IMG/VR virus record: IMGVR_UViG_644736364_000004
From: a virus
Lineage: Duplodnaviria; Heunggongvirae; Uroviricota; Caudoviricetes
Reading direction: 5' to 3' (one strand)
Length of the DNA stretch: 41,621 nucleotides
Shown piece after piece: positions 6,163 to 8,815 of this stretch. The stretch's first letter is position 1; every line of letters starts with the position of its first letter. A program made the position numbers and the translations under genes. The notes under the pieces were generated by a model, which was given only the letters and a program-made list of their open reading frames with translations, searched no databases and was not told the origin of the DNA.

Positions 6163-6744
6163 ATGAACAACTCATGGTGGCAGGAACTAATGCATTTTTT
6201 CCTGCAAGGAATGACACTTAAACAGTTGATTCATATGCTAATCATCCTGATCATATTGATTATTGTTATGCCGGTAAGCGTAAAAGAATGGATAAACCTG
6301 CATAATCCAGAAATCCTTCCTCATTACTGGATGTATTACATCCTGTTGTTTTGCGTTAGCTATGTGCTTAACGGCGTTGTTAATTCCGCTTATCACGCTG
6401 TGACTGAAAGAATTGAGGTATTCGCTGCTCAGAAGCGCAAATCTAAAGAAGAAAAATATGTGCAAGATTTGTTTGATTCGTTAACTCTTGGAGAAAGAGC
6501 GTATTTGGCATTCGCTGTAGCCGCTAATAACCAGCTACAAACGGAAAAGGGCGCTCATGAATCAATTTCATTGCTCAAAAAAGGACTCCTCGTTCGAAGG
6601 CCTCCTGCTGTTGGATATCCTGATACCGACCGTTTCGTTATCCCTGAAAGCTATAGACATGAGTGCTACATTAGGTTTGCCGGGAAGGCAGACAGCCTTA
6701 TGGATGAACTTATCGCTCAGGATAAGCATGGCAAAAACAAGTAA
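6163..6744 (+). CDS. sieB: SieB superinfection exclusion protein, 193 aa
   Basis: Translation MNNSWWQELMHFFLQGMTLKQLIHMLIILIILIIVMPVSVKEW… matches lambda SieB; rightward gene embedded in the leftward operon, as in lambda. Confidence 0.8.
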   Translation: MNNSWWQELMHFFLQGMTLKQLIHMLIILIILIIVMPVSVKEWINLHNPEILPHYWMYYILLFCVSYVLNGVVNSAYHAVTERIEVFAAQKRKSKEEKYVQDLFDSLTLGERAYLAFAVAANNQLQTEKGAHESISLLKKGLLVRRPPAVGYPDTDRFVIPESYRHECYIRFAGKADSLMDELIAQDKHGKNK

Positions 6745-7270: not shown

Positions 7271-7437
7271 GCGTGGTTTTTTATAACGCTTTGTATTTAA
7301 TAGTGTTGTTTTTTAGCGTGGATGTATTGCCTCGGCGATGTAAGGAGAGATCAGAATTGCGTGGTTTAGTGGGTTGCATCTATTTATTTTTCAATAAATA
7401 TAATTGGTTATGTGTTTTTAGGTGGGCGAACGTGAGG

Positions 7438-7464
7438 CAAAGAAAACCCGGCGCTGAGGCCGGG
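7438..7464 (-). terminator. Rho-independent terminator closing the cI operon
   Basis: On the minus strand, stem CCCGGC-CUCAGC-GCCGGG (plus 7447-7464) followed by UUUUCUUUG, beginning 6 nt after the stop of the 250-codon gene. Confidence 0.6.
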
Positions 7465-7469
7465 TTGTA

Positions 7470-8222
7470 TTATGCTGCAAGTCTCTTAACCCAAGTCTCT
7501 CTTTTGGAGAATGGTAGAACTTGGCTTGATTCATGGAAGAGTAAGGAGAGTTGTTGCATTTGATCACCAATTGCTTCGCTGTCTATAACAACAAATCTGT
7601 TGTTATACTCCTCACTTGAAGCTTTAAGATCAATTAGTTTCCCAAGCAATGAGTAAGCACTATTCCAGCTTCCTCCGTGTTTCACGCTTGATGTAAAAAC
7701 GTATTTAGGTATGTCGGTTTTTATTGTTACAGGGACGGTAATTTGATGTCCACTCAAGCCATATACGTTTTCACGAAGAGAAAGTGCGTCTCTAAGCTCT
7801 GTGTGATATAGATAATCAATAACCATACTTTCAAACTTTTCAGCTTGAACTGGCTGATACCAGTCTAACGACAAAGTTGATGCGAGTATACCAGCTCTAA
7901 TTATGTTCGATGTAATCGCACCGACATCCTTTTCTGTTGCCCAAGCAATGATTTCTCCTCGAGCATTGAGTTCTGCGCCTTCTTTAAGCAGTAATTGTCG
8001 TATCTCATCAAGTCGTTTTTTGGTAAGCGAGATCCCTCTTGCCTCCATATTCATTAAGGCATCGCATCTGTCACTAACTAAATACCTACCATTGACTTCA
8101 CGGATAAAGGCACCGACATGCTCTCCATCATCACAGTAAGTGAATGGACTGATAATTCTCAAGGTCTTGCCTATTGGATGGCATTCGAAACCTAGTTGTG
8201 AGATCACTGTTGAGCACATCAT
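7470..8222 (-). CDS. Uncharacterised protein, 250 aa; distal gene of the cassette downstream of cI (rexB-equivalent position)
   Basis: ATGATG start whose first codon overlaps the TGA of the upstream 185-codon ORF; followed by a terminator; AT-rich by inspection; no transmembrane segments and no family recognised. Confidence 0.65.
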   Translation of the reverse strand: MMCSTVISQLGFECHPIGKTLRIISPFTYCDDGEHVGAFIREVNGRYLVSDRCDALMNMEARGISLTKKRLDEIRQLLLKEGAELNARGEIIAWATEKDVGAITSNIIRAGILASTLSLDWYQPVQAEKFESMVIDYLYHTELRDALSLRENVYGLSGHQITVPVTIKTDIPKYVFTSSVKHGGSWNSAYSLLGKLIDLKASSEEYNNRFVVIDSEAIGDQMQQLSLLFHESSQVLPFSKRETWVKRLAA

Positions 8223-8776
8223 ATTCCAAACCCCATTTGCCCCGACTCATCTTCAAGCGGTAAAGGTATTCTCCCAGAGTAAGTTATGTTCAGATGTTTA
8301 CAGAAGTAATTCCAATACCCTACCAGGTCATCTGGGTTTATGTCATCTTCGATTGGAAACGCTATTCTATCACTATAGTATCCAGCTTCTTCATAGTATA
8401 CATGGTAGTGAGCACCGTAAATGATATCTTGGTACTTCGGATGATCGACCTTGTAACTATTCGTGTGTTTGTCAAAGTGATAGGTATCTACCGCGAAAAC
8501 CCTCTTGTTATGATAGAAAGCAATAATATTTATTTTAGGGTAAGAAATCGGGTCATCAGGTTCTGAATCCTGATCTGGTTTCCATTTCAGTTCAAACTTT
8601 AGCCCTTGTATAGGTATACAATCCTCATCCAAGGGGATGATATGGGCTTGTAGCCACATATCAGAGCGACTTGGTTTCTGTTTCCATTTAACGCCAGAAA
8701 AGTTAACTATTTTTTTACAATAAAGTACTTTATCAACTTCTACTTGGCTTGGCTGATAATCATCTATTTTTGCCAA
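8219..8776 (-). CDS. Uncharacterised protein, 185 aa; proximal gene of the cassette downstream of cI (rexA-equivalent position)
   Basis: ORF starts at a TTG directly after an in-frame stop, 39 nt downstream of the cI stop; His/Tyr/Asp-rich; no family recognised. The start codon is uncertain. Confidence 0.55.
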   Translation of the reverse strand: MAKIDDYQPSQVEVDKVLYCKKIVNFSGVKWKQKPSRSDMWLQAHIIPLDEDCIPIQGLKFELKWKPDQDSEPDDPISYPKINIIAFYHNKRVFAVDTYHFDKHTNSYKVDHPKYQDIIYGAHYHVYYEEAGYYSDRIAFPIEDDINPDDLVGYWNYFCKHLNITYSGRIPLPLEDESGQMGFGI

Positions 8777-8815
8777 TGTTTACCGCCCTGTAAATTGTAG
8801 ATAAAAGTGGTTTCA

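Follow-up and report, generated by a model that had tools for sequence, protein, structure and literature searches.

A two-gene cassette in the rexAB position of a lambda-like phage as a candidate lysogen-expressed anti-phage module

The cI repressor gene of the virus recorded as IMGVR_UViG_644736364_000004 in IMG/VR (Caudoviricetes), which was analysed as a window of 41,621 nucleotides (nt), is followed on the same strand by a cassette of two genes, designated A and B. Judging from its sequence and setting, this cassette appears on balance to be an anti-phage module that a lysogen expresses as part of the repressor transcript and is, as such, a predicted functional analogue of rexAB. Four independent, indirect lines lead to this reading: the order repressor-A-B is kept beside unrelated repressors in many phage lineages; the cassette behaves as exchangeable cargo; genes that are defence candidates in PADLOC sit between the repressor and A in Izhakiella, in Providencia and in a Pseudomonas phage; and two computational screens in the literature single out the pair or relatives of it. 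A defence role had already been proposed in a sequence-only reading of this DNA by a model, and that part of the proposal is strengthened by these lines, whereas the abortive-infection or superinfection-exclusion mechanism that was attached to it was pure conjecture.

The phage is a lambda-like temperate phage of E. coli, with the gene order int-xis-exo-bet-gam-kil-cIII-ea10-ral-sieB-N-[B-A]-cI-cro-cII-O-P-ren by comparison with the annotated phage PhiR63_2, and the cassette sits exactly at the rexAB position, so the analogy to cI-rexA-rexB-timm of lambda drawn in the sequence-only reading is correct. The repressor gene is annotated as cI in PhiR63_2, and an allele from Shiga toxin (Stx) phages that is 98.7% identical to it bears annotated PRM and operators. 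As with RexAB, the two genes are co-oriented directly downstream of cI, a terminator precedes PL/N, the slot is variable among lambdoid phages, and expression in the lysogen is presumed. RexB spans the membrane several times, whereas A and B contain no transmembrane segment (maximum 19-residue Kyte-Doolittle values of 0.45 and 1.19, respectively), and no Rex model was matched by either protein in PADLOC, Pfam, PHROGs or NCBIfam, both as had been expected from the letters alone. A further difference is that A and B overlap by ATGA. The coordinates of the locus are collected in Table 1.

Table 1. Features of the cI-A-B locus (positions in the window)
Feature	Position	Strand	Evidence or remark
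cI repressor	8816..9517	(-)	HTH_3 (PF01381, E 2e-10) and Peptidase_S24 (PF00717, E 1e-28)
cI-A spacer, 39 nt	8777..8815	(-)	weak GGCGG Shine-Dalgarno-like element; fold z = +0.89
Gene A, 185 amino acids	8219..8776	(-)	TTG start (8774-8776)
Gene B, 250 amino acids	7470..8222	(-)	DUF1828 and predicted DUF1829 domains
ATGA, overlap of A stop and B start	8219..8222	(-)	sequence
Intrinsic terminator	7435..7466	(-)	terminator scan; dG -14.6 kcal/mol, z = -3.6 versus shuffles

On the evidence of their sequences, A and B are real genes that are translationally coupled. Both have strong PHROG matches (E 6e-67 and 2e-106), homologues with 50-84% identity are found in many genera, and the ATGA overlap is present in all 13 of the genome and phage loci that were checked. 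The lengths of the two open reading frames (ORFs), the gap between cI and A and the overlap of the TGA of A with the start of B agree with what had been read from the letters. The TTG start of A was also read correctly, while the in-frame TAA that had been placed directly before it lies two codons upstream (TAA ACA TTG). A TTG or GTG start is used in 10 of 11 copies, comprising the window and Enterobacterales loci (L002-L006, L013, L014 and L019 among them), and the ATG of Thorsellia is the only other start found; this recurrence points to a deliberately weak initiation of A.

Co-transcription of the cassette with cI is consistent with the sequence, and it is plausible given that the spacer contains neither a terminator nor a convincing promoter and that a strong terminator follows B. 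In the spacer, the terminator scan gave no terminator-like site and folding gave no stable structure, while the same scan of the window found one strong terminator after B. An internal promoter between cI and A was considered and rejected, since the only candidate agreed with the consensus at 9 of 12 positions and overlapped the start codon, and such matches were no more numerous than in shuffled sequence. The terminator, which is the counterpart of lambda timm and had been noticed before as a GC-rich hairpin with a U-tract, starts 3 nt past the stop of B and consists of AACCCGGC-CUCAGC-GCCGGGUU plus UUUCUUU (7466-7435), that is, an 8-bp GC-rich stem and then UUUUCUUU. In a lysogen, the cassette would act as an accessory 'moron' operon, transcribed from PRM/PRE through cI into A and B, and its products would protect the lysogen from superinfecting phages. 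The impression that this block is AT-rich is borne out by windowed GC content, which is 0.396 for the cassette versus 0.503 for the window and falls in the lowest 0.7 percentile among windows of equal size. The GC content at third codon positions is also low, at 0.34-0.36 for the cassette genes compared with 0.45 for cI and 0.58 for P.

The order repressor-A-B recurs in Enterobacterales, Aeromonas, Pasteurellaceae and Pseudomonas phages and on ~55 IMG/VR contigs, next to unrelated repressor types. B is immediately preceded by an A homologue, which ends at the start of B, in 11 of 11 loci taken from representative genomes (Izhakiella, Yersinia, Providencia, Xenorhabdus, Thorsellia, Lonepinella and a Burkholderiales metagenome-assembled genome). 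In prophages of Salmonella, Aeromonas caviae and Klebsiella, a divergent cro-like gene is followed by the repressor, A and B; the repressors are either proteins of 128-131 amino acids with a helix-turn-helix (HTH) domain only or proteins of 224-235 amino acids with HTH and S24 domains, and the replication modules differ too. A D3-like Pseudomonas phage carries a CI-like repressor, a gene of 216 codons, an unannotated A-like ORF and B, with the ATGA present. A scan of IMG/VR with two distant B clusters, only ~25-30% identical to the B of the window, gave 58 loci. An ORF positive for the A profile (E 1e-16 to 1e-52) stands directly upstream of B in 49 of the 55 loci that have an upstream ORF, and 47 of these 49 show the 4-nt overlap. 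On the same viral contigs, Peptidase_S24 was detected in 30 of 39 non-redundant co-oriented ORFs upstream of A. A third and most distant branch has an S24 repressor (3/3), then a partner of ~150 amino acids that retains H-x-H, and then B. Every locus examined is a prophage immunity region, and none is embedded in BREX, DISARM or type I restriction-modification (RM) systems. Defence cargo downstream of a prophage repressor is known as a kind; what is new here is the near-universal coupling of the A-B pair to the repressor.

Of 5,426 complete E. coli genomes, 239 (~4%) carry the cassette, Nissle 1917 and the type strain ATCC 11775 among them, and it also occurs in the sequenced phages ev017, ev207, PhiR57_1, PhiR63_2 and Stx1_121427; no copies were found on plasmids. 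In the chromosome of Lonepinella koalarum there are two prophage copies (L010 and L012), in which A is truncated to 77 amino acids, B is truncated or frameshifted and cI is split, so that repressor and cassette are decaying together. A contig of 518 bp labelled Actinomadura rugatobispora (L009) contains an A-B junction whose B segment has 82% protein identity to the B of the window; it is almost certainly assembly contamination and not an actinobacterial homologue.

Two overlapping, translationally coupled genes with a conserved weak start codon in the first are also what a toxin-antitoxin-like addiction or stabilisation module would look like, one that kills or arrests cells that lose the prophage and for which phage defence would be secondary. 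The persistence of the cassette in the defective prophage of Nissle 1917 and its decay along with cI in L. koalarum would suit such a module. This explanation is nonetheless quite improbable, given that searches of Pfam, NCBIfam and PADLOC linked neither protein to a toxin or antitoxin family, that 185 and 250 amino acids are large for type II pairs, and that addiction modules are usually common on plasmids, whereas this cassette is absent from them.

Sequence comparison indicates that the cassette is exchangeable cargo outside the core immunity machinery, because the same cI allele occurs without it or with another ORF in its place. The allele (98.7% nt identity) is found in ~55 Stx phages that lack the cassette, and only 7 phage records contain the cassette compared with ~60 that have this cI. 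In Stx2 phage II (AP005154; L022 2476-2997), which has the same cI allele, the slot is filled by c63, an unrelated ORF of 173 codons for which no Pfam or PADLOC match was obtained; c63 is a further uncharacterised occupant of the position equivalent to rex. The left edge of the slot is marked by a 65-bp terminator segment (7402-7466) that is 97-98% identical in ~190 other lambdoid and Stx phage records, and the homologous segment in 933W carries the annotation 'terminator'. These records lack the cassette. The segment sets a recombination boundary at the left edge of the variable slot, and it looks like a conserved recombination joint.

Defence candidates are also found inside the unit. Between the repressor and A, Izhakiella (L002 5044-5385) and Providencia (L004 5053-5394) carry a DUF3024 gene of 113 codons that matches the PADLOC single-gene candidate PDC-S43 (E 1e-38), and the insert of the Pseudomonas phage (L023 2680-3330), with a product of 216 residues, shows weak similarity to PDC-S48 (E 3e-6).

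The pair itself resembles PDC-M24, one of 145 PADLOC 'phage defence candidates' that were nominated by guilt-by-embedding in BREX, DISARM and type I RM systems (Payne et al. 2024). PDC-M24 is likewise a two-gene system, and both of its hidden Markov models are matched in the same gene order: PDC-M24B by B with E 4.7e-10 (residues 2-249 on profile positions 4-254 of 256), and PDC-M24A, marginally, by A with E 4.8e-4 (residues 104-163). The two differ in that the matches are weak, the one of A extending over 60 residues only, and in that PDC-M24 was not defined from prophage immunity regions. No other named defence family in PADLOC, Pfam or NCBIfam was matched by A or B, and NCBIfam gave no matches to either protein.

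The second screen is DefensePredictor (DeWeirdt, Mahoney and Laub, Science 2026, PMC13092281), in which both exact RefSeq proteins, from an ECOR strain, are listed as 'Predicted novel defense gene', with log-odds of 5.6 for B (WP_000968518.1) and 4.9-5.4 for A (WP_001062368.1). Given that both proteins are in Table S5 of that work and that B is assigned to DUF1828 in RefSeq, the description of the cassette as unrecognised in the sequence-only reading was overstated. Neither accession is in Table S6, which covers the 94 assayed units (PMC13092281). The same study newly implicated DUF1829, a domain also predicted in B, in defence through DS-6B/HipAD (PMC13092281). DS-6/HipAD is similar in having a DUF1829 domain and two genes and in being a mobile-element system of E. 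coli. It differs in that its partner is a HipA-like kinase and the N-terminus of DS-6B is DUF3037, where the present cassette has protein A and DUF1828. BstA and the DefensePredictor unit DS-34 ('cI + hypothetical') are examples of defence cargo that lies right behind a prophage repressor and is expressed in the lysogen. BstA consists of one protein, as opposed to a coupled pair, and neither system has homology to A or B, which gave no PADLOC match other than those described above. Literature searches gave no mention of PDC-M24 or of the two WP accessions in main texts, and mentions of DUF1828 or DUF6978 only in irrelevant papers on S. aureus and Avibacterium. Both genes are annotated as hypothetical in the 2025 GenBank records of PhiR57_1 and PhiR63_2, which weakly suggests that A and B were uncharacterised at that time.

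The near-universal position of the cassette beside the repressor, unrelated repressors included, could also reflect an accessory lysogeny regulator that tunes the amount of repressor, prophage induction or the choice between lysis and lysogeny, perhaps through binding to DNA near the operators or through sensing of DNA damage. RexAB of lambda has been linked to lysis-lysogeny control too, and the fold predicted for B is similar to that of enzymes acting on DNA. Many inducible Stx phages, however, rely on the same cI allele and lack the cassette, which accompanies this allele in so few records, and the relatives in PDC-M24 are embedded in RM and BREX systems, away from repressors. Moreover, the partner repressors are both of the HTH-only and of the S24 type, a mixture that speaks against any specific biochemical tie to the repressor. 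A regulatory role of this kind is therefore regarded as unlikely, to much the same degree as an addiction module.

The claim that neither protein belongs to a nameable family does not hold for B, which scores above the Pfam gathering threshold for DUF1828 (PF08861; 33.5 bits vs a cutoff of 22, residues 26-110), and it has to be read together with the weak matches of both proteins to PDC-M24. For the RefSeq protein identical to B, a published HHpred result places DUF1829 (PF08862) at residues 155-241 with 98.8% probability (PMC13092281). The hmmscan of the window protein gave no DUF1829 match, while a distant homologue (P0158) matches PF08862 directly. An exhaustive profile search with B collected 237 representative clusters, nearly all of ~250 amino acids. 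Residues conserved down to ~21% identity are two N-terminal cysteines, a [ST]-D-x-x-D motif, a G-x-SGH hairpin, W186, G194-K195 and D198.

The AlphaFold2 model of B has a mean predicted local distance difference test score (pLDDT) of 83 and comprises two domains. The N-terminal domain is predicted to resemble YbjN and type III secretion chaperones, and the C-terminal domain a restriction-endonuclease-like alpha/beta fold, in which the model shows the alpha-beta-beta-beta-alpha-beta core of PD-(D/E)xK enzymes. The resemblance is one of fold only, given that identity to YbjN, to type III secretion chaperones and to restriction endonucleases of the CCGG family (NgoMIV, PspGI and Cfr10I) is 7-12%, and that B has neither the conserved catalytic residues of the nucleases nor the secretion context of the chaperones. 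The canonical PD-(D/E)xK triad was not found in B: the beta1-beta2 hairpin bears the G-x-SGH motif, K173 on strand beta3 is present in close relatives only, and a conserved acidic pair is lacking. A canonical PD-(D/E)xK nuclease is ruled out by this pattern of residue conservation.

Protein A is acidic and mostly beta, and its model is confident (pLDDT 85.9, predicted template modelling score 0.83). Searches of the PDB gave no convincing fold match for A, and sequence and profile searches against the PDB gave nothing real for either protein; Foldseek against viral models returned one uncharacterised phage protein only. A and B have no characterised relatives, and one of the two has a fold without a solved homologue. 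The match of A to Pfam DUF6978 (22 bits) is below the cutoff of 29.6 and covers the C-terminal third only, and 6 of 12 members of the A family show similarly weak matches. A score of A and its family profile against the designed Kelch-like propeller SAKe6AC-LB (PDB 8pjr; A residues 76-115, E 4e-6 to 2e-9) was set aside as a probable repeat artefact, because it contains no individually significant stretch and is probably the sum of weak matches to the repeated blades.

Down to 22% identity, K22, W31, R92, D97, H104, N106, H123, H125, F158 and Q180 are invariant in A. All branches examined retain W31, R92, H123-x-H125, F158 and P173, only the most distant one departs from D97, H104 and N106, and the C-terminal tail has a conserved SGQxGF. 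From this pattern of conservation, a catalytic or metal site formed by neighbouring beta strands can be proposed, together with a conserved C-terminal tail. The motifs H-x-N and H-x-H brought HNH/His-Me and HIT enzymes into consideration; an assignment of A to these classes is rejected by inference, since neither the spacing and order of the residues nor the predicted secondary structure fits.

The histidines of A, as a potential metal-binding cluster, would also be compatible with a host-fitness moron unrelated to phages, serving, for example, stress tolerance, metal handling or virulence and expressed from the lysogenic promoter; bor and lom are known morons expressed in lysogens. This is very improbable, however, as signal peptides and transmembrane segments are absent from both proteins, the family is confined to immunity regions of temperate phages over many hosts and habitats, and both defence-prediction methods are positive.

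Within the anti-phage module, a division of labour between the two proteins can be proposed. B would be a sensor or regulator that binds DNA, through its nuclease-like domain, or a phage protein, and its chaperone-like domain may hold A by the conserved C-terminal tail, as type III chaperones hold their effectors. A would be a metal-dependent effector enzyme that acts once infection is sensed, either by direct interference or by abortive infection, and the weak TTG/GTG start would fit a need for a low dose of A. In the reversed assignment, the predicted DUF1829 domain of B would be a non-canonical nuclease effector, with S157, H159, K195 and D198 as candidate residues, and A would be a sensor, specificity or activating subunit. 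From conservation and analogy of folds, the assignment of A as effector and B as sensor is favoured, and the reversed one is nearly as likely; as a separate explanation the latter is somewhat unlikely, and to be taken seriously all the same. More tentative still than defence itself, and doubtful when all its parts are taken together, is the possibility that the cassette represents a new anti-phage mechanism, in which A is a beta-rich metalloenzyme (R / D / H-x-N / H-x-H) of a fold not seen before and is held and controlled by B, and in which the pair has evolved into dedicated cargo of repressor operons across Proteobacteria and adds to the resistance of Nissle to lambdoid and Stx phages.

Several points weigh against a role in defence or against the mechanism proposed for it. 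The match to PDC-M24A is marginal and PDC-M24 is itself a candidate. The distant prophage pairs that were compared, from Pseudomonas and from IMG/VR, match the PDC-M24B model only and never PDC-M24A, for which reason the prophage clade is best seen as a sister of PDC-M24. Among DefensePredictor units with log-odds of 3.6-7.7, a phenotype was obtained for 11 of the 28 that were assayed (our own count from the tables of PMC13092281), so that only ~40% of assayed units at such scores had a phenotype. The nuclease-like domain of B lacks the canonical triad and A lacks a recognisable enzymatic fold, and the effector and sensor roles have conservation and fold analogy as their sole basis. The strict linkage to the repressor would fit lysogeny control or prophage maintenance equally well.

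The probable anti-phage module is of particular interest in the probiotic strain's own phage resistance, given that the cI-A-B unit of Nissle 1917 (L001 9063-10668) is 100% identical to that of the window. The Nissle prophage is a defective lambdoid prophage, truncated to the left of sieB by an ISEc52 insertion and with a partial integrase gene next to icd. Part of this strain's resistance to lambda and Stx phages was ascribed to a 'phage repressor' (pr, EcN_1294) of Nissle prophage 3, for which ~200-fold protection was reported (Bury et al. 2018). The cloning and quantitative PCR primers of that study map to positions 9898-9916, 10141-10158 and 10247-10267 of the window, and the 'pr' clone corresponds to a cII-family gene of 98 codons at 9944-10240 (+), not to cI. 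The possibility that the cassette lay within this clone was discarded, since the primers map to the cII ORF; given that the clone is cII, the cassette was not part of what was tested. The authors state that other genes of the prophage are still to be examined (Bury et al. 2018). For Nissle, resistance to lambda and Stx phages has been accounted for only in part, and the cassette is an obvious candidate for the remainder. If the cassette is a defence system, a widespread module, present in ~4% of complete E. coli genomes and in many Proteobacteria, joins the lysogen-expressed immunity genes, and its near-universal association with repressor genes of unrelated types would turn the position downstream of the repressor into a practical, searchable hotspot for defence genes.

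Two neighbouring genes were also observed. In the A. caviae prophage (L016 6876-7796), a protein of 306 amino acids with a C-terminal BRCT domain is encoded directly downstream of B on the same strand and might be a further cargo of the same transcription unit. In the window, a superinfection-exclusion gene of the SieB family (6163-6744, (+); PF14163, E 2.5e-22; phrog_1301) adjoins N less than 1 kb from the cassette; it is a second gene of exclusion or defence type in the immunity region, and it is AT-rich as well, with a GC content of 0.41.

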